Shown here piece by piece: positions 2,271 through 22,109 of a stretch of DNA of 64,000 nt. The number at the start of each line of letters is the position of its first letter. Position 1 is the stretch's first letter. The notes under the pieces were generated by a model, which was not told the DNA's origin, searched no databases, and saw only the letters and a program-made list of their open reading frames with translations. The stretch comes from Escherichia phage Lw1. The stretch lies in the sequence record KC801932. The stretch is one strand, 5' to 3'. The translations under genes were made by a program, and so were the position numbers.

Positions 2271-4084
2271 AACAAGAAATTATTATAGGTAACGTGGTTG
2301 ATGACGGCGCTGGCGATTACTTACGCCGTGGTGGTCAAAAAACAAACGCGAACTTTACCGAATTATATGAAAAGCTGGGTGACGGGGAAATCCCTCACCC
2401 AGCGGGTGCGTGGAAAACGCATTCCGCTCCTACATTGAACCCTATTTTTGGTGATTCATGGGCGCTGAATACCAGTAACAACCGTATTACTGTAAACCTC
2501 CCTAAAGGGGGCGTAAGCGATTATAACAAGGTTATTCGTCTGCGTGATGTTTGGAGTAAATGGGCGGTTAACAACGTGCGTATCGTTCCGGCAACGGGAG
2601 ACACCATCAAAGGTTCACCAACTTACAAAGAACTGTACAAAGATTTCATGGATGTTGAACTGGTTTATTGTGCTCCTGGGCGTTGGGAATACGTCGAGAA
2701 CAAACAGGTTGACAAAATAACAACTTCGGATCTGGCTACCGTAGCGAAAGAAACCTATATCGCAACTCAGGGACAGACAGACTTCCCGAATGTGTTCGGT
2801 CCTGGCAACATGTACAACGTTCGTGCTCTCGAAGTCTACTATCGTGGTAACTTGCTGTACATCGACGATAAGAACGGCTTTAATGAAGCAAACAGTGATT
2901 ACGGTTCGCCTGGGGCAACTGCGGGGCAACTCGTAGAACTGGATGGAACCAACATACGCCTTAAACGTCCCTGTAACGCTGGTGACACGCTTCAATTTGT
3001 CACCTATATGGATGGTATAGCAACATGGCGTTCGACGTATGAAGCGCATACAATGCGCGTATACAACACTGGAGACACTGAACTTGTGAGCGTACCTGGT
3101 GAAATCTGGGTTGGCGATCTGGCTAACAAGAAAGAATTCACCACTGCTGAATTTGGTATCAGTTCCCGTGTGTTGATTAACCCGAATTCATTCGAACTGC
3201 TGCTGAACGGTCGTCAGCTTGTAAAAGCAGGTGATGCGGATCTTCCTACGTTTGTTTGTGAAGGTGCGGAAGGTTATGATGAAGATAGCTGTTTGGCTAA
3301 CTCCGGTTTATGGGTTCCGTCTGGACAGGATTACAGTCTAATCTTTGTTAACTCTATTGTGACTGGGATTAAGTTTCATCAGGCACTGGAAACCCGCGAT
3401 GTGGTAACAATCCGTTGGTTCAATAACGATATCGGAACCGTAATGGAATGGGACGGCGTAGGCGGTATTAAAGAGCATACGGATAAACTGTATCTGAATA
3501 ACGAAGACGAATTGACTTTGGTTAATCAGATTGAATATACAGACTACAACAACCCGTCACAAAAAACAATGCGTAAGGTTGCAGATCCTTTCGTTGGTCG
3601 TCTGTTGGATTTGCAAGCGTTTTTCGATGTGATTCACCCTATTGGGACAATTTACGAAAACGCACACAACGACGCAAACCCAGGCGATTATATGGGATTT
3701 GGTATCTGGACACGATATGCAGAAGGGATGTTTATTGCTGGTTGGACTACCGATGCAGCAGATAGCGATTTTGGGCTGAACAATAACGATCTGGATGGTT
3801 CCGGTCAACCTACACACACATCAGGTGGTACTGGTGGTGAACGCGGCTACGAAATCAAACCGATCAACGTTCCACAAATCGAATCTACCGATAAAGTTCT
3901 GATTAAGGACGATAACGGGATCATTATCATTGGTGGTTGTCAGGTTGACCCAGATGCAACAGGACCAGGATACACTAAATACCGTGAGGATGTATTGAAA
4001 GTAAATCAGGGTAATACTACTCCTGATAAGCTGAAAACGCTCCCTCCGTATATTACTGCACATCGCTGGATAAGGGTAGCATAA
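2267..4084 (+). CDS. 10: baseplate wedge protein gp10
   Basis: 605 aa; N-terminus IGNVVDDGAGDYLRRGG and C-terminus YTKYRED...RWIRVA match recalled T4 gp10; start overlaps gp9 stop. Confidence 0.85.
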   Translation: MKQEIIIGNVVDDGAGDYLRRGGQKTNANFTELYEKLGDGEIPHPAGAWKTHSAPTLNPIFGDSWALNTSNNRITVNLPKGGVSDYNKVIRLRDVWSKWAVNNVRIVPATGDTIKGSPTYKELYKDFMDVELVYCAPGRWEYVENKQVDKITTSDLATVAKETYIATQGQTDFPNVFGPGNMYNVRALEVYYRGNLLYIDDKNGFNEANSDYGSPGATAGQLVELDGTNIRLKRPCNAGDTLQFVTYMDGIATWRSTYEAHTMRVYNTGDTELVSVPGEIWVGDLANKKEFTTAEFGISSRVLINPNSFELLLNGRQLVKAGDADLPTFVCEGAEGYDEDSCLANSGLWVPSGQDYSLIFVNSIVTGIKFHQALETRDVVTIRWFNNDIGTVMEWDGVGGIKEHTDKLYLNNEDELTLVNQIEYTDYNNPSQKTMRKVADPFVGRLLDLQAFFDVIHPIGTIYENAHNDANPGDYMGFGIWTRYAEGMFIAGWTTDAADSDFGLNNNDLDGSGQPTHTSGGTGGERGYEIKPINVPQIESTDKVLIKDDNGIIIIGGCQVDPDATGPGYTKYREDVLKVNQGNTTPDKLKTLPPYITAHRWIRVA

Positions 4085-4746
4085 TGACACAATTTATTTC
4101 AAAGACAAGGGAGGGGGCGAAAGTCCCTTCTCGTGAAGCAGACTTTTTGCAATATGAAATGGGTACGAAAGAACCCCTTATTGGTGGTAAACGTACCATC
4201 GGCGGTGCAAACGTTGATCAGCTTCGCAAAGGGATAGACTATCCCAACGTACAATCAGCAATCGATGACCTGTATTCTCTGACTCAACAGATCCCGATTA
4301 ACGGGGTTATCATGATGACAGAAGACAGTCCACCGACCGCTGTTCAGCAGGTAGAAACAATCACGTTTGATGGAACTGTACAAAATCCAGATCCAGACCA
4401 AACGAAAGCAACCGTTCATGTTTATGGCTTTCCGTTTGTATTCGATAACACAACGAACGCCTCTACGGTATGCGAAACAGTATTCAACAAGTTTACTGAA
4501 TTTGTCAACGACGAAAAATATTTCGATCTGGTTACGCGTAAAGGATTGAACGGGGAAATTCTGGAAGTTCGTTTTATTGATGCGGTTCCACATCCGGTAA
4601 CTAACGCAACAGAAAACGGGATCTCTATGGTTGGTGTAATCGACGTACAGGCGCGTTCTGGTTACGGTACGTGGTCGAAACTGGGTGAGATTGATCTTGC
4701 TGTAACTCCACCTGTTCCGATTTATTATTTCAAACGTATTGCGTAA
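4084..4746 (+). CDS. 11: baseplate wedge protein gp11
   Basis: 220 aa; C-terminal GYGTWSKLG...YYFKRIA resembles T4 gp11 C-terminus; synteny. Confidence 0.8.
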   Translation: MTQFISKTREGAKVPSREADFLQYEMGTKEPLIGGKRTIGGANVDQLRKGIDYPNVQSAIDDLYSLTQQIPINGVIMMTEDSPPTAVQQVETITFDGTVQNPDPDQTKATVHVYGFPFVFDNTTNASTVCETVFNKFTEFVNDEKYFDLVTRKGLNGEILEVRFIDAVPHPVTNATENGISMVGVIDVQARSGYGTWSKLGEIDLAVTPPVPIYYFKRIA

Positions 4747-6159: not shown

Positions 6160-8448
6160 ATGATTTCAAAACTTAACCCGTTACCAAAGATCCCGTTTGT
6201 TGATGGTGTCCCTTCGGACACCACACAAACCCCGATCAGTTGGATTCTTAACGGTGAGACTCTCGACGGGGCCAAAACAAAGGTCACTAGCGAGGGTTCT
6301 TTAAACAGATGCGGCGTTCTGGTTCAAAAGAACGCGGTGCAATTGGAAACAAACACCATTACGCAAACGGCAAAAATCAACGAAGTTATCGATCAAGTTA
6401 ACCTCATTAGTGAAAACCTCGCGGCTATTTCTGATGAAAGCGTGATCGAAAAACTGGATCAGGTCGTTGCTGATGTGGAAGTGTTAAAAGTCGATATGAC
6501 TGCGGTTCAAGGTTCTACCGCAAGCAATACCCTGAAAATTCAGGATCTCGATAAAGATATCGGGACATGGGATGCTACAACAGATCCAAAACACCGAACC
6601 ATTCGCAAAGATATTATTTTTCTGAAAGGGGAAATGGGCGCATATCCTGGATTTAATCAGGACGGTGACGTAGATCCTACTTCAACTGGCTCTGGAATGA
6701 AATACAAAATCATGACGAACGCGCAAGCGATTTCGATTCATGAAGGGCGTATTACCAGACTGGAAGACGATTGGGCCAACTCAGATGTAGGCCATTTAAC
6801 TGATGAAGTTACCGACTTGCGTAATGAAATGGGGCCGAAACATTTAGCAACGTTTGAATCGGTGTACGTTCGTCTGAATAAAATTGGTACGGATATCACT
6901 GGGATTAATACCGAACTGACAGAAATCAACCAATATATCGGTCGTACTGGTACAGGTGGTTCTGGAAGTATTTCTGCTCGAATGACTACGGCAGAAACGA
7001 ATATTGTTACTCTGCAAACGCAGATGAATGATTCTTCCGTTGGTGTTCTTCCTCGCGTAATTTCTCTTGAAAACCAAGTTGGGAATTCGCAGGTTCCGGG
7101 TAGTATTCGTTATGATATCAGTAATATCAAACGTGACATTAGCGACCTGAATATGGTTGTTGGTGAATCAAGCGATGAAGGGCTACGGGGCGAAATGGCT
7201 CAGGTTATGTCCGATATCGGTACAGATTCACAACCTACAAGCATTAAAGGCCGTCTGCTTAACGTAGAGAATACGCAGCGCGACGATCACCAGCGTTTGA
7301 TTGATGTCGAATCTATTGTTGGTAACACCTCAAGCGGACTTGTTGCGGCTAACATCGCAATGGGTAAAGCGGTTTATGGTGATGCAACCAGTTCAGATCC
7401 GTTCCTCAAAGACGGTATTCAGAAAACGACTCGCGATAGCAAAACTGCAATTGGTGTCAACACTACAGGTTCTGAAACTGGAATCTATAAGTTGATTTCC
7501 GATCTGACTGCTCGTGTTGCTGCTCTGGAAAGTGGTTCTGGTAGTGATCTCGAACAGCGTGTTTCCGATCTTGAAGTCAATAAAGCATCGCATCAGGACG
7601 TTACAAACGCACTGGTTCCGTATATTACTGAAACTGAGGCCGATATCAAGTACGAACCGAAGAAGATTCCGCTTGCGTTCACTCAAAACCTCGTTGGTCG
7701 AAATGATTATATCGAAGGTGATGACATTTCTCTGATGGTTACTGTATCTGGTGGTAAAGTCCCTTATGCGTACCAGTGGAAGAAAGACAACGCGAACGTA
7801 GGTACGAACGCATCAAGTTTGATGATCCAGACCATCACATCGGCTAACGCTGGCGTGTATAAGGTTGAAGTAACTGACGCAGATAACACGGTTATCACTT
7901 CTAACGAATTGACAATTGCTGTTTATCCGGTTCCTCAGTTCGATACTAACCTGGCTGATAAATCAGTGGTTGACGGTGATCCTCTGACTCTGGAAGTTGT
8001 GTATAGCGGCGGTAAACCTTCGTACACTTACGAGTGGTTCAAAGATAACTCTGTTATCTCTGGGGCAACATCAGCAACATTTACCAAATCTGCGGTTACA
8101 AGTGCCGATGCTGGTGAATACTATGTTTCTGTGACTGACTCGATGAACAACCAAAATGATTCAGTGAAAGCAAATGTGACGGTAACACCACGTCCTGCAC
8201 TGGCATTCACTACGGATCTGAGTTCTACTAAATCATATAGCACAGGTGCTGATATGGACCTTGCTGTTGTCGTAACTGGTGGTAAAACACCATATACGTA
8301 CAAATGGTTTAAAGACACTGCGGAAATTTCCGGTCAGACAGGCGCAAGCCTTACCACTGTAGCAGAAGATGGAGTGTATAAAGTCGAAGTGACTGATGCA
8401 CTAACGACTAAAATCACATCAACTGAATGCACGGTAACTGTTGCATAA
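6160..8448 (+). CDS. wac: fibritin (whisker) with three C-terminal Ig-like repeats
   Basis: 762 aa; N-terminus LPKIPFVDGVP...ISWILNGE...SEGSLNR matches recalled T4 wac N-terminus; long serine/threonine-rich coiled-coil segments; last 260 aa are three tandem 85-aa repeats (GGK-x-PY-x-Y-x-W-x-KD ... G-x-Y-x-V-x-VTD). Confidence 0.75.
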   Translation: MISKLNPLPKIPFVDGVPSDTTQTPISWILNGETLDGAKTKVTSEGSLNRCGVLVQKNAVQLETNTITQTAKINEVIDQVNLISENLAAISDESVIEKLDQVVADVEVLKVDMTAVQGSTASNTLKIQDLDKDIGTWDATTDPKHRTIRKDIIFLKGEMGAYPGFNQDGDVDPTSTGSGMKYKIMTNAQAISIHEGRITRLEDDWANSDVGHLTDEVTDLRNEMGPKHLATFESVYVRLNKIGTDITGINTELTEINQYIGRTGTGGSGSISARMTTAETNIVTLQTQMNDSSVGVLPRVISLENQVGNSQVPGSIRYDISNIKRDISDLNMVVGESSDEGLRGEMAQVMSDIGTDSQPTSIKGRLLNVENTQRDDHQRLIDVESIVGNTSSGLVAANIAMGKAVYGDATSSDPFLKDGIQKTTRDSKTAIGVNTTGSETGIYKLISDLTARVAALESGSGSDLEQRVSDLEVNKASHQDVTNALVPYITETEADIKYEPKKIPLAFTQNLVGRNDYIEGDDISLMVTVSGGKVPYAYQWKKDNANVGTNASSLMIQTITSANAGVYKVEVTDADNTVITSNELTIAVYPVPQFDTNLADKSVVDGDPLTLEVVYSGGKPSYTYEWFKDNSVISGATSATFTKSAVTSADAGEYYVSVTDSMNNQNDSVKANVTVTPRPALAFTTDLSSTKSYSTGADMDLAVVVTGGKTPYTYKWFKDTAEISGQTGASLTTVAEDGVYKVEVTDALTTKITSTECTVTVA

Positions 8449-9415: not shown

Positions 9416-10162
9416 ATGCAAAACTGGGATGAAAGTTTATTCGCTCAGTTGTCAACGGGAGAGGGAGTTGATCGCAACTTAAAGGATCAAGTTACTAACC
9501 CGTATGTAAACTGGTACAAATATAACCCGACACAACAGCTACACGATTCACTGACAGCAGAATCCATACAGATGAAATCACCTGATATGTATTATGTCAG
9601 ACGTGAATTTGTGAATATAGATAAAATACTGGGTGAAGACCGAGAATCTAAATTTACGAAATCGTGGAAGATTGCGGCATATATTGAATCATACGCCAAC
9701 TACGAAGGACAGCGGGACTTCTTTAGCAAATTTGGGTTGAGTTCTAACGACGAAATGACGCTGGTACTGAATCCGCGTTTATTTGCACATCAAACTGATG
9801 GTGGTATTCCTGTGTTGGGGGATTTGATTTATTTCCCTATGGACAACAGCCTGTTTGAAATTACATGGGTGGAAGCAGATCCGTTCTATCAGTTCGGTGA
9901 TCGTCCTCAACGTAAAATCAACCTGGCTAAATTCATCTACACGGGCGAAGAATTGGCTCCTGAATTGCAGCGAAACGAGGGAATCCATATTGAACCTGAT
10001 GCAGAACTGGATCTTGAACCTATTCGAAATCTCGACGGGCTGGCAGATATCAACATTGAACAGTACGAAGAAGACAAAGAATTTGAAAAAGAAAGTGACG
10101 AGTTCATCGATTCTTTTGATGTTGTCAACGGACGCGGATCTCCATTCGCAACGTTGCCCTAA
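9416..10162 (+). CDS. 14: neck protein gp14
   Basis: 248 aa; NPYVNWYKYNPTQQLHDSLTAESIQM and DLIYFPMDNSLFEITWVE match recalled T4 gp14. Confidence 0.85.
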   Translation: MQNWDESLFAQLSTGEGVDRNLKDQVTNPYVNWYKYNPTQQLHDSLTAESIQMKSPDMYYVRREFVNIDKILGEDRESKFTKSWKIAAYIESYANYEGQRDFFSKFGLSSNDEMTLVLNPRLFAHQTDGGIPVLGDLIYFPMDNSLFEITWVEADPFYQFGDRPQRKINLAKFIYTGEELAPELQRNEGIHIEPDAELDLEPIRNLDGLADINIEQYEEDKEFEKESDEFIDSFDVVNGRGSPFATLP

Positions 10163-10219
10163 ATAGTTTATATGGGTATAGGCGAAAGTCTGTACCCTCT
10201 TCGAAGAGGATTTTATGAT

Positions 10220-10945
10220 ATGGTTGCAAAAATCTCTATAGAACAAAGAGAACATCAATTAAAAGAACGTTGTGCGGAATTAGAACTATCTTTTGATGGA
10301 TGGGTAGACCAATCAGCGATCACAAAATATTCAAAGTTTTATGTTGTTTGCAGTAAAGGACATAGAACAGAAAAACAGATCAAACCATTTGTCAACAAAA
10401 GTCGTCCAAACGGATGTTATTTGTGTTCCCCTAAGATGAAAATATCAAAGGAAAACAGAATCGAGGAAATCAAAACTCTTGCAGATTCAATTGGATATAC
10501 ATTCGTAGATTTCGTTGGGGTGTATAAAGATGCACACACAAAAATATCAATGGTTTGCGATAAAGGCCATAATTGGGATGTAAGTATAGTTGCTTTTCTC
10601 AATCAAGGTCATCGCTGTAAAAAATGCGCAACGTCTGGGTTCAATCCGAACAAACCAGCATACGTATACGTACAATCACTATCTGGAAAATTTCTGAAAT
10701 TTGGGATAACCAACAGAACACCAAAGAAAAGAATGTGTGCGCAATCAAATAAATCCGTTTATAAACACGAACTGGTTTATCAAAAATTATTCGATAAAGG
10801 TATTGATGCAATGAGTATTGAACAGAAGATCAAACAATCTCTTGTTTGTGGCGTAGTCGATAAATCAGATATGATGGATGGATATACAGAAACAACAGAT
10901 ATATCCAATTACGATAAACTGTTGAATATTATAGAAGGAGTATAA
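10220..10945 (+). CDS. putative endonuclease with tandem zinc-ribbon modules and a C-terminal GIY-YIG-like (T5orf172-type) domain, inserted between genes 14 and 15
   Basis: Two repeats of C-x-KGH-x(15-20)-GC-x-x-C; C-terminal AYVYVQSLSGKFLKFGITN resembles GIY-(spacer)-YIG; start chosen at in-frame ATG 10220, which is 11 nt downstream of a GAGG; the six-frame track ORF begins at 10172. Confidence 0.5.
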   Translation: MVAKISIEQREHQLKERCAELELSFDGWVDQSAITKYSKFYVVCSKGHRTEKQIKPFVNKSRPNGCYLCSPKMKISKENRIEEIKTLADSIGYTFVDFVGVYKDAHTKISMVCDKGHNWDVSIVAFLNQGHRCKKCATSGFNPNKPAYVYVQSLSGKFLKFGITNRTPKKRMCAQSNKSVYKHELVYQKLFDKGIDAMSIEQKIKQSLVCGVVDKSDMMDGYTETTDISNYDKLLNIIEGV

Positions 10946-10947
10946 AA

Positions 10948-11765
10948 TTGTTTGGCTACTGGTATAATAGCTCACTGCGTAACTACATTGTTCTTATGGG
11001 ACAATTGTTTAACCATGTTCAGGTTAAAAGAGTTCGCGGCGACCAAGAAAAATTTATTAAGGTTCCAATTACCTACGCATCGAAAGAGAAATTTCTTGCT
11101 TCCATGAATAAACTCAACTATGCGTATAGTCAGGAAAACGTAGCAAAGACGGAAACCATTTTACCGCGAATGAACTTATCACTGGTCGATCTGCAATATA
11201 ACGCAATTCGTAAAACCAGCATCGCGGTCAACCAAAAAATGACGCAATTGCAATCACCCCGCAAGACGATCACGCAGTTTAACCCTGTGCCTTATCGTTT
11301 AATTTTTGAACTGGGTGTGTATACGCGATATGAAGACGACATGTTTCAGATTGCAGAACAGATTTTACCGTATTTTCAACCACATTTCAACTGCAAGATT
11401 ACCGAACTGCATAAGAACGAAATCACAGTTGACCGAGACATCAAAATCAGTCTCCAGTCGGTTGCACCAGATACAACGTTTGAGGGCGAAGCATCACAGC
11501 GCCGACATGTTGAATGGTCTTTCATGTTCGAATTGCAGGGTTATCTGTACCCGCCTGTTACTGACGTTAAGGGCGAAATCAGAACAGTATACACGGATTT
11601 CTTTGCCAATATGAACCCATTGGATAAAGATAACTTTGAATCCGTTGATAGTCAAGCCGATCCGGTAGATCTGCCTTTGCAGGATTACACGGGCGAAGAA
11701 TATATTCAGACGTATTCGCACGATAAGCCGATCCCGTCTGGTGATGAACCTCCTAAGCCGAGGGA

Positions 11766-11769
<4 letters not shown>
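10948..11769 (+). CDS. 15: tail sheath stabiliser / tail completion protein gp15
   Basis: 273 aa; TTG start preceded by AGGAG; MFGYWYNSS..., YEDDMFQI.EQILPYFQPHFN and TVYTDF.AN match recalled T4 gp15. Confidence 0.85.
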
Positions 11770-20436: not shown

Positions 20437-22017
20437 ATGTCTAAGAAAAACGAATTGATGGAAAAATGGAACGATCTTCTGGAATCTCAGGAAGGTTTAC
20501 CGGATATCGCTACCAAATCCAAAAAACAACTGGTCGCTGCCATTCTGGAAGCACAGGAAAAAGACGCTGAAACCGATCCGGTTTATCGCGACGAAAAAAT
20601 TGTGGAATCCTTCGGTGGTTTCCTGGCAGAAGCAGAAATTGCTGGCGATCATAACTATGACCCGACCAACATCGCTTCTGGTAAATCCAGCGGTGCTATC
20701 ACCAACATCGGTCCTGCTGTAATCGGTATGGTTCGCCGTGCGATCCCTAACCTGATTGCGTTCGACATTTGCGGTGTTCAGCCTATGACTGGTCCTACTG
20801 GTCAGGTGTTCGCTCTCCGTGCTGTCTACGGTAAAGATCCTCTGGCTGGCGGTACTCCGGCAGATGTTCGTGAAGCATTCCATCCGATGTTTGCCCCGGA
20901 TACCATGTATTCTGGTCAGGGTGCTGCACCAAGCAACGGTTTCGCGAAAATCACTACTGGTACTGCAATTGCAACTGGCGCTATCGTTTACCACTTCTTC
21001 GAAGAAACTGGTATTGCGTACTTCCAGAACGTAACTTCTGGTAACGTAACCGTAACTGGTGCTACTCCGGCAGAACTGGACCTGGCTGTTACCGCAGAGA
21101 ACGAAAAAGGTACTCTGGCTGAAATTTCTCAGGCTATGGCTACCAGTGTAGCAGAACTCCAGGAAAACTTCAACGGTTCCAGTTCTAACCCGTGGAACGA
21201 AATGGCTTTCCGTATCGACAAACAGGTTATCGAAGCCCGTAGCCGTCAACTGAAAGCACAGTATTCCGTTGAACTGGCACAGGATCTCCGCGCTGTTCAC
21301 GGTATGGACGCTGACGCAGAACTGTCTGCAATCCTGGCAACTGAAATCATGCTGGAAATCAACCGCGAAATCGTTGATCTGATCAACTTTACCGCGCAGA
21401 TTGGTAAAACTGGTTTCACCAAGACTGTAGGCTCTAAAGCTGGTGCGTTTGACTTCCAAGATCCGGTAGATATTCGCGGCGCTCGTTGGGCTGGTGAAAG
21501 CTACAAAGCTCTGTTGATTCAGATCGACAAAGAAGCGAACGAAATCGCACGTCAAACAGGCCGTGGTGCTGGTAACTTCATCATCGCTTCCCGTAACGTG
21601 GTTTCCGCTCTGGCTCGTATCGACAGCGGTATTACTCCGGCAGGTCAGGGCTTGCAGAAGTCTCTGAACGTTGACACTACCAAAGCGGTATTCGCTGGTG
21701 TTCTGGGTGGCACTTACAAAGTGTACATCGACCAGTACGCTCGTAGCGATTACTTCACCGTTGGCTTCAAGGGTGATAACGAAATGGATGCTGGTATCTA
21801 CTACGCTCCATACGTTGCGCTTACCCCGCTGCGTGGTTCTGATCCGAAGAACTTCCAGCCAGTAATGGGCTTCAAAACTCGTTACGGTATCGGTATCAAC
21901 CCGTTTGCGAACTCTCGCACTCAGGCTCCGGCAGATCGTATCACCTCCGGTATGATCACTAAAGACATGGTCGGCAAAAACGCATACTTCCGTAAAGTAT
22001 ACGTTAAAGGTCTGTAA
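20437..22017 (+). CDS. 23: major capsid protein gp23
   Basis: 526 aa; long near-identical stretches to T4 gp23 (VRRAIPNLIAFDICGVQPM..PTGQVFALRAVYGKDP, EAEIAGDHNYDPTNIASG). Confidence 0.95.
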   Translation: MSKKNELMEKWNDLLESQEGLPDIATKSKKQLVAAILEAQEKDAETDPVYRDEKIVESFGGFLAEAEIAGDHNYDPTNIASGKSSGAITNIGPAVIGMVRRAIPNLIAFDICGVQPMTGPTGQVFALRAVYGKDPLAGGTPADVREAFHPMFAPDTMYSGQGAAPSNGFAKITTGTAIATGAIVYHFFEETGIAYFQNVTSGNVTVTGATPAELDLAVTAENEKGTLAEISQAMATSVAELQENFNGSSSNPWNEMAFRIDKQVIEARSRQLKAQYSVELAQDLRAVHGMDADAELSAILATEIMLEINREIVDLINFTAQIGKTGFTKTVGSKAGAFDFQDPVDIRGARWAGESYKALLIQIDKEANEIARQTGRGAGNFIIASRNVVSALARIDSGITPAGQGLQKSLNVDTTKAVFAGVLGGTYKVYIDQYARSDYFTVGFKGDNEMDAGIYYAPYVALTPLRGSDPKNFQPVMGFKTRYGIGINPFANSRTQAPADRITSGMITKDMVGKNAYFRKVYVKGL

Positions 22018-22033
22018 GACTTTACACAAGAAA

Positions 22034-22058
22034 GGCAACCTACGGGTTGCCTTTTTTT
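22034..22058 (+). terminator. rho-independent terminator after gene 23
   Basis: GGCAACC-tacg-GGTTGCC followed by TTTTTTT. Confidence 0.7.
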
Positions 22059-22109
22059 ATGGTGTAAATAGATACAGGATAAAAGCCCTCTAATTCAGGA
22101 ACCAAAGAA

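Follow-up and report, generated by a model that had tools for sequence, protein, structure and literature searches.

A probable free-standing homing-endonuclease gene with CapR-type zinc-finger repeats between genes 14 and 15 of Escherichia phage Lw1

CapR-type repeats joined to a C-terminal T5orf172 domain constitute a described homing-endonuclease architecture, CapR being present in 95 of 229 T5orf172 genes (Barth et al. 2023, PMC10448857). The class, whose N-termini carry CapR, DUF723 or DUF4397 repeats, includes genes of ICP1, T5-like phages and Aeromonas and Vibrio phages, and T4 itself has no T5orf172 genes (PMC10448857). CapR, a zinc-finger domain that binds DNA, was originally defined in the repressor of a phage satellite and at the N-termini of homing endonucleases of ICP1; domains of this type have been proven to act as sequence-specific repressors, and their binding was shown experimentally to depend on cysteines (Netter et al. 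2021, PMC8096241). A second group of described systems is formed by the free-standing Seg (GIY-YIG) endonucleases of T4 (Edgell, Gibb & Belfort 2010, PMC2988022). The present study deals with a gene of Escherichia phage Lw1 (sequence record KC801932), an RB16-like T4-type Pseudotevenvirus. A stretch of 64,000 nucleotides of this phage, here called the window, was analysed, and the features described below are given in window positions on the plus strand. The gene (10220..10945, 241 amino acids) is located between genes 14 and 15 and, on comparative sequence grounds, is likely to be a free-standing homing-endonuclease gene, selfish and mobile. This reading, already put forward in a preliminary description of the same DNA, is supported by the CapR architecture, by the patchy presence of the gene and by its being more conserved than its flanks.

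The protein shares with the T5orf172 class the tandem CapR-type repeats at the N-terminus, a C-terminal domain of about 100 amino acids with the pattern YxY...K(I/F)G(I)T...R...E...TE, and a position beside essential structural genes, at a boundary of genetic exchange. It was 37% identical to the product of T5 gene T5.141 over 94% of the length, and 32% identical (E value 9e-30) to a protein with six repeats in Vibrio phage 184E37.3a; Barth et al. mention this phage by name on account of its repeat-rich T5orf172 genes (PMC10448857). On the other hand, it differs from the class in its host lineage, a T4-type Pseudotevenvirus, in a C-terminal domain too divergent for the gathering scores of the Pfam families T5orf172 and MUG113, and in the 14/15 insertion site and target, which are particular to the window lineage. 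Like the T4 Seg endonucleases, the gene is free-standing between conserved T4-type genes, present in some relatives and absent from others, and accompanied by flanking co-conversion, mosaic boundaries and a hairpin over the ribosome-binding site, and the GIY-YIG superfamily fold, here predicted, is common to both. In contrast with those enzymes, the protein has no match in Pfam to PF01541 (canonical GIY-YIG) or NUMOD and no helix-turn-helix, its predicted DNA-binding modules being CapR repeats, and its second motif is K-F-G instead of Y-I-G; judged from its domains, it is not a Seg-type enzyme. A CapR-homology zinc-finger domain is also shared with PLE CapR (PMC8096241), but that protein, a transcriptional repressor in a satellite, matches only the N-terminal part, whereas a conserved C-terminal domain with a nuclease fold is retained in the window protein, whose gene behaves as a mobile one.

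Across the phage collection, the 14/15 site was found in three states. The gene is present in nine records from seven phages, with E. coli, Cronobacter and Klebsiella as hosts; an unrelated mobE-like gene of 204 amino acids occupies the site in 17 records and, as internally deleted relics, in two more; and an empty spacer of 58 nucleotides is found in 43 records. Relatives without the insert, with which a comparison had been suggested, make up the majority. Occupancy varies within one species, JC03 carrying the gene and GAP161 having an empty site. Such sporadic presence and absence is that expected of a free-standing homing-endonuclease gene. The preliminary description had named the lack of any nuclease-family match, together with a homologous gene at this position in all relatives and evidence of a structural role, as observations that would refute the endonuclease reading; instead, a nuclease fold was predicted and the gene was absent from most relatives.

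The gene was 99.2–99.9% identical in nucleotide sequence between the lineage of the window and RB16 and the lineage of JC03, leE and Cronuts, while in the same pair of lineages the flanks were clearly more distant, with identities of about 89.6% for gene product 14 (gp14), 89.7% for gp15 and 81% for gp16, a contrast that points to recent horizontal spread. The gp14 of the window was 94.4% identical to that of RB16. The guanine plus cytosine (GC) content of the gene was 34.2%, and 26.9% at third codon positions (GC3), against 42–46% in the flanks. The ratio of non-synonymous to synonymous substitution rates (dN/dS), calculated against a 93%-identical metagenomic copy, was 0.08 in the zinc-finger half and 0.08–0.09 in the nuclease half, which indicates that the gene is not decaying.

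Additionally, a putative donor-derived (co-converted) tract of 69 nucleotides with 16 substitutions was delimited at the 5' end of gene 15 (10948..11016). Within this tract, the same 16 positions distinguish JC03, leE and Cronuts from their close relatives with an empty site, GAP161 and Margaery, and past it the divergence falls to about 2–3%; the left flank of the JC03–GAP161 pair differs by 1.2%. The gp15 allele of the tract type was carried by seven of seven phages with the gene and by none of five empty phages. A gene more similar than its flanks and the presence of co-converted markers are both the signs expected of horizontal movement. The asymmetry of the tract suggests that the cut is made on the right-hand side of the insertion, either inside 10948–11016 or past it, and a cut site apart from the insertion site is characteristic of the free-standing endonucleases of T4 (PMC2988022).

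The N-terminal part of the protein consists of two CapR-type zinc-finger repeats, the first at 10220..10429 (amino acids 1–70) and the second at 10430..10630 (amino acids 71–137). The Pfam CapR homology domain, PF21817, was recognised in two stretches with 64.9 bits (gathering cut-off 24.2; E value 7e-18), the best one being amino acids 84–137 of the 241, and a weak match to the treble-clef family DUF4379 (E value 0.009) was obtained in repeat 2. The two halves, of about 70 amino acids each, are 31% identical to each other (E value 5e-7) and thus form an internal repeat, and in the AlphaFold2 model a helix-strand-strand-strand-helix unit occurs twice. The predicted zinc ligands are C44-x3-H48...C66-x2-C69 and C113-x3-H117...C133-x2-C136, in the paired cysteine and histidine arrangement of PF21817, about 20–26 residues apart; among 20 homologues C44 and C69 were invariant and C66, C113, C133 and C136 were conserved in at least 90%. 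Two modules of the form C-x-KGH...GC-x-x-C had been described beforehand. Both are present, reading C-S-KGH...GC-YL-C and C-D-KGH...RC-KK-C, so that the GC of the pattern is retained in the first and replaced by RC in the second.

The C-terminal domain (10631..10942, amino acids 138–241) is a predicted nuclease domain of GIY-YIG fold, similar to T5orf172 and MUG113, with the motifs YVY...KFGITN...R171...E201...DGYTET. The segment AYVYVQSLSGKFLKFGITN, pointed out in the preliminary description, is part of it and contains residues that are invariant in the family. A Pfam search had been expected to return a zinc family together with T5orf172 or GIY-YIG; the first expectation was borne out by CapR, while no direct match to T5orf172 or GIY-YIG was obtained, and the protein itself remained under the gathering scores of T5orf172 (PF10544) and MUG113 (PF13455). 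Among the homologous domains weak family links were detected, to MUG113 in 10 of 16 (best E value 1.2e-4), to T5orf172 in 6 of 16 (best E value 6.5e-6) and to GIY-YIG in 3 of 16, all three families belonging to the GIY-YIG clan, Pfam CL0418. A profile search against 1.84 billion representatives yielded 3552 relatives at an E value of 1e-3 or lower, and the domain was C-terminal in essentially all of the 150 matches listed. The whole protein matched PHROG 681, annotated as endonuclease, with an E value of 1e-62.

Structural predictions of high confidence were obtained with AlphaFold (predicted local distance difference test, pLDDT, of 88 with the full-length protein and of 96 with the isolated domain). 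The domain was modelled alone because Foldseek returned only meaningless matches for the full three-domain model (glyoxalase-like folds and RnlA, template modelling (TM) scores below 0.2); with the domain alone, GIY-YIG proteins ranked first, at TM scores of 0.44–0.52. In the predicted model, the domain has the alpha/beta fold of the GIY-YIG clan CL0418. Eight residues, Y150, K160, G162, R171, E201, G221, E224 and T225, were invariant in 163 representatives clustered at 50% identity, and Y150, K160-x-G162, R171, E201 and E224 are located on the expected secondary-structure elements of the model, I-TevI not being alignable by hhalign. The invariant pattern Y...K-x-G...R...E is that expected of a putative active site of the T5orf172-type within the GIY-YIG fold, and the T5orf172 domain is a proven nuclease in Odn of ICP1, in which the corresponding substitution, E180A, abolishes cleavage (PMC8263062). 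Since the direct Pfam test for T5orf172 failed, the domain is classified from its sequence as a divergent member of the GIY-YIG clan, T5orf172/MUG113-like, and not as a certified member of PF10544.

Several results weigh against a homing endonuclease and are considered here together. Literature searches found no experimental work on the gene, and no cleavage or mobility experiment for it or a close relative. The C-terminal domain (104 residues) had no Pfam match even at E values up to 10, whether the full protein or the isolated domain was searched, and no NCBIfam match. No match among PDB sequences was obtained by phmmer or hmmsearch with the protein and two domain profiles (16 and 47 sequences), and hhalign of the domain profiles against the catalytic domain of I-TevI, whose sequence was checked against 1MK0 and 1LN0, produced no alignment. 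Most of the clan scores of the homologues, at 16–21 bits, fell slightly short of the cut-offs (20 and 22.3), and the GIY-YIG matches of Foldseek were not significant (E values 0.45–2.2). The homologue of the metagenome contig L013 (introduced below) shows roughly the same divergence as its flanks, with 73% identity against 74–80% in amino acids and 63% for gp16, which fits a long vertical residence with apparent co-divergence. Finally, the carrier-linked gp15 allele is also present in RB43 and in some mobE-type phages. Because it is shared with the RB43 lineage and those mobE-type phages, it cannot simply be taken for a resistance allele, and a cleavage-resistant target was rejected as unproven; donor sequence dragged along by gene conversion would explain the allele at least as well.

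The homologue in question is located at 4001–4726 of L013 (SRR23468733_6149), which derives from a divergent T4-like phage. It is found at the same 14/15 site, it starts with GTG, and the gp15 next to it keeps its ATG. A 73%-identical homologue at the same site of such a divergent contig indicates that the site specificity is old.

The alternative that survives best, which we nevertheless regard as unlikely, is a gene derived from a homing endonuclease and now kept for the benefit of the phage, whether as a nuclease, domesticated or weaponised, or as a regulator that binds DNA. Possible benefits are marker exclusion of co-infecting relatives, an attack on satellites like that of Odn of ICP1, or promoter repression like that by CapR or I-TevI. 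Precedents exist for the two kinds of domain, CapR-type domains being proven sequence-specific repressors (PMC8096241) and a T5orf172 nuclease having been recruited for anti-satellite defence (PMC8263062), and the strong purifying selection on both halves of the gene (dN/dS 0.08), the apparently parallel divergence of the L013 homologue and its flanks at this site, and a location beside an essential late gene, near its promoter and ribosome-binding site, agree with it. Such a gene would not be expected, however, to be absent from most close relatives (the 43 empty records), even within one species, to keep more than 99% identity across backgrounds 10–19% diverged, to be followed by a conversion tract, to have a foreign base composition, or to alternate at its site with an unrelated homing-endonuclease cassette, all of which mark a selfish mobile gene. 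Moreover, homing itself produces marker exclusion as a by-product, and this benefit is no distinct alternative.

A nuclease relic that has lost its activity, or a protein that does no more than bind DNA, is considerably less probable; the patchy distribution would then result from ordinary modular recombination. This explanation draws on the failure of every curated nuclease profile to recognise the C-terminal domain directly and on the non-significant E values of Foldseek; it is opposed by the eight residues invariant in 163 divergent representatives, the Y, K-x-G, R and E positions among them, and by the low dN/dS of the C-terminal half (0.08–0.09). Decaying copies also look different, as the mobE relics at this very site have large internal deletions. 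A structural or assembly accessory protein of the neck–tail junction, encoded together with genes 13–15, is scarcely credible and was rejected, its position in the late structural operon, with probable co-transcription with genes 13–15, being all that favours it, against the absence of the gene from most relatives, which build the same virion, zinc-finger and nuclease-fold domains in place of any similarity to virion proteins, and homologues at unrelated positions in T5 (tail chaperone/tape measure) and JSE (gp2/gp3).

For the homing endonuclease, the favoured explanation, the following mechanism may be proposed. The two tandem CapR-type repeats would tether the C-terminal nuclease domain of GIY-YIG fold to a specific DNA sequence, the target presumably being located either at the gene 14/15 junction of relatives without the gene or a short distance downstream of it. 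In a mixed infection the enzyme would cut the empty genome, and the break would be repaired by homologous recombination with the gene-carrying genome as template, so that a cassette of about 750 bp would be copied in together with at least the first 70 bp or so of the donor gene 15. The cassette would displace the 3' part of the native spacer, including the ribosome-binding site of gp15, and would supply a replacement from its own 3' end. A small hairpin over the Shine–Dalgarno sequence may restrain the translation of the cassette itself, as in the homing endonucleases of T4.

The flanks of the insertion were identified with Pfam, confirming an open reading frame between the two genes. Gene 14, on the left (9416..10162), encodes the neck protein (PF11649, T4_neck-protein, E value 3.9e-87; PHROG 679), and gene 15, on the right (10948..11769), the tail sheath stabiliser (PF16724, T4-gp15_tss, E value 1.7e-97). 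The gene order around the site is T4-like (wac, 13, 14, the open reading frame, 15, 16, 17), and genes 14 and 15 are indeed adjacent in T4, as had been stated, with a spacer of 41 nucleotides. RB16 is 97.3% identical to the window over the 14–15 region and carries the same gene, RB16p203.

The open reading frame had been read from 10172 to 10945 (ATG to TAA, 257 amino acids), a start probably placed 48 nucleotides too far upstream; the true start is probably the ATG at 10220, which gives 241 amino acids. The ATG at 10172 is located inside a stretch of spacer that is conserved also in phages without the gene, just upstream of the hairpin at 10174–10197, while the ATG at 10220 has a Shine–Dalgarno sequence, GAGGA, at a spacing of 9 nucleotides. 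The later start is annotated in four of the five RB16-type records whose annotation was read (RB16, JC03, leE and Cronuts) and the longer frame in the fifth, phi1_146015; the homologues share the N-terminus MVA..., one of them with GTG at the same position. Gene 15 starts with TTG at 10948, two bases past the stop codon of the insert (TAA, 10943–10945), as previously noted. This start is genuine, as the product aligns from residue 1 with gp15 of T4 (MFGYWYNSS against MFGYFYNSS).

At the left junction the sequence is common to all phages through the end of a conserved intergenic hairpin (10174..10197; stem of 10 bp and GAAA loop), ending in ...ACCC at 10197, and diverges from that of the empty phages exactly where the cassette leader begins (10198..10219). 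The hairpin is part of the native spacer, outside the mobile cassette, and is kept in empty and occupied phages. Its centroid structure, the hairpin alone, has a free energy of -16.5 kcal/mol, and the region of 76 nucleotides a minimum free energy of -19.7 kcal/mol (z -2.8). Its loop is of GNRA type; in the window one A-U pair is changed to G-U, and RB43 and L013 have longer variants. The hairpin is probably not a terminator, since no T-run follows the stem. At the right junction, TTG comes directly after the cassette end, ...GAAGGAGTATAAAA, and in the empty phages ATG comes after ...CAGGAAAATAAA. About 18–23 nucleotides of native spacer, including the ribosome-binding site of gp15, are replaced by the cassette, and a new Shine–Dalgarno sequence for gp15, GGAG, is found within the last codons of the nuclease gene.

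The mobE-like gene, found in RB43, HMGUkp1, Taquito, Miller and others, is inserted at the identical site. Its product has NUMOD3 motifs and a weak HNH match (E value 0.24) and is annotated as an HNH mobile endonuclease. The proteins are unrelated and the coding sequences have no similarity, but a leader of 24 nucleotides, TCTTCGAAGAGGATTTTATGATAT, is common to both cassettes; it was not found elsewhere in the window, nor was a paralogue of the gene or of mobE of RB43. Both cassettes also replace the ATG of gp15 with a non-AUG codon placed 2–3 nucleotides past their own stop codon, TTG with the present gene and ATT with mobE, and the mobE-like cassette follows a cycle of presence, absence and relics as well. 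This cassette was observed at the junction in L002 (RB43), L004, L015–L017 and L031 of the collection. In the mobE-type phages the ATT is located 3 nucleotides after the TAG stop of the cassette, and with this start several annotations begin gp15 at Met17, losing 16 conserved codons; the first 16 codons of gp15 remain under purifying selection. The relics are located at 3800–3973 of Fraggle and at 3800–4086 of phi1_146002. Both have large internal deletions and retain the 5' leader and the 3' end, and in Fraggle a frame of 57 codons is still open and ends at the original stop beside the ATT of gp15.

No T4 late-promoter consensus was found directly upstream of the gene in the window, and the gene is therefore probably co-transcribed with genes 13–15. 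The relatives have CATAAATA overlapping the stop codon of gp14, and the window reads CCTAAATA. A palindrome, CCTCTTCGAAGAGG (10196–10209), overlaps the Shine–Dalgarno sequence GAGGA (10206–10210), and a small hairpin is predicted there. In T4, the ribosome-binding sites of homing endonucleases are as a rule sequestered in hairpins (PMC2988022), and by analogy the translation of the endonuclease is probably restrained by this one, a weak point given that the predicted stem has only 5 bp.

It may tentatively be suggested, although we consider it rather unlikely, that the 14/15 junction is a contested site, at which the two unrelated cassettes swap via their shared leader, each removing the native ribosome-binding site of gp15 and bringing another within its own 3' end, and the translation of gp15 depends on the 3' end of the cassette in an addiction-like manner. 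If gp15 depended on the cassette in this way, a clean deletion would be deleterious, and this would explain the retention of leader and 3' end in both mobE relics. The retained ends allow such a dependence and do not establish it. If true, it would constitute an addiction-like route of persistence for a selfish gene.

The comparison with RB16 also located a mosaic breakpoint. Identity was 79–95% from position 1 to about 10,200 and 98–100% from 10,220 to about 20,500, the breakpoint (10211–10247) coinciding with the 5' edge of the gene, in agreement with the boundaries of genetic exchange that such nuclease genes occupy (PMC10448857). To its left are the baseplate genes, wac, 13 and 14, and to its right the gene itself through genes 15–22. 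The wac gene (fibritin/whisker, 6160–8448) encodes 762 amino acids with three C-terminal repeats of about 90 amino acids, recognised by eye, and is the most diverged gene of the region, with 86% identity to RB16 and 67–77% to the JC03 lineage. Further downstream, RB16 carries, between genes 23 and 24, a homing-endonuclease gene of the Seg-like GIY-YIG kind, RB16p215, which the window does not have; 55 nucleotides with a terminator-like hairpin (22013–22068) are found there instead of the 732 nucleotides of RB16. Gene 23, just upstream of 22013 (20500–22000 region), is 92–95% identical to that of RB16, and its neighbours 99–100%.

With RB16p203 and its orthologues the protein shares 98–99% identity, and deposited records of RB16 and six other phages already contain the gene with the annotation endonuclease. 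It was entered in the RB16 deposit of 2010 as 'conserved hypothetical protein', is now 'endonuclease' in RefSeq, and is a 'putative GIY-YIG nuclease family protein' in Cronuts. RB16 has been tabulated with ten putative homing-endonuclease genes, one of them 'other GIY-YIG' (PMC2993671), an entry that may or may not be the present gene. This existing annotation, the alternative mobE-like occupant and the real start codon had been missed in the preliminary description. The gene, ordinary and as yet uncharacterised, belongs to a known class, and its novelty is low, since the class has been described (Barth et al. 2023) and the gene was already annotated as endonuclease. The three states of the site, the 24-nucleotide leader shared by unrelated cassettes and the change of the gp15 ATG to a non-AUG codon by both of them go slightly beyond what was known.

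With respect to annotation, the start codon of the gene is corrected and the non-AUG starts of gene 15 (TTG and ATT) are confirmed, gene 15 being cut by 16 codons in several deposited records. The gene adds to the CapR/T5orf172 class a member from Pseudotevenvirus, a T4-type lineage, although in T4 itself the class is missing. The occupied, alternatively occupied, decayed and empty states of the site are represented among phages of E. coli, Cronobacter and Klebsiella that are sequenced and can be cultured, and constitute a convenient natural test system, in which homing, target recognition by the zinc fingers, competition between endonucleases and their role in mosaicism would be directly testable.

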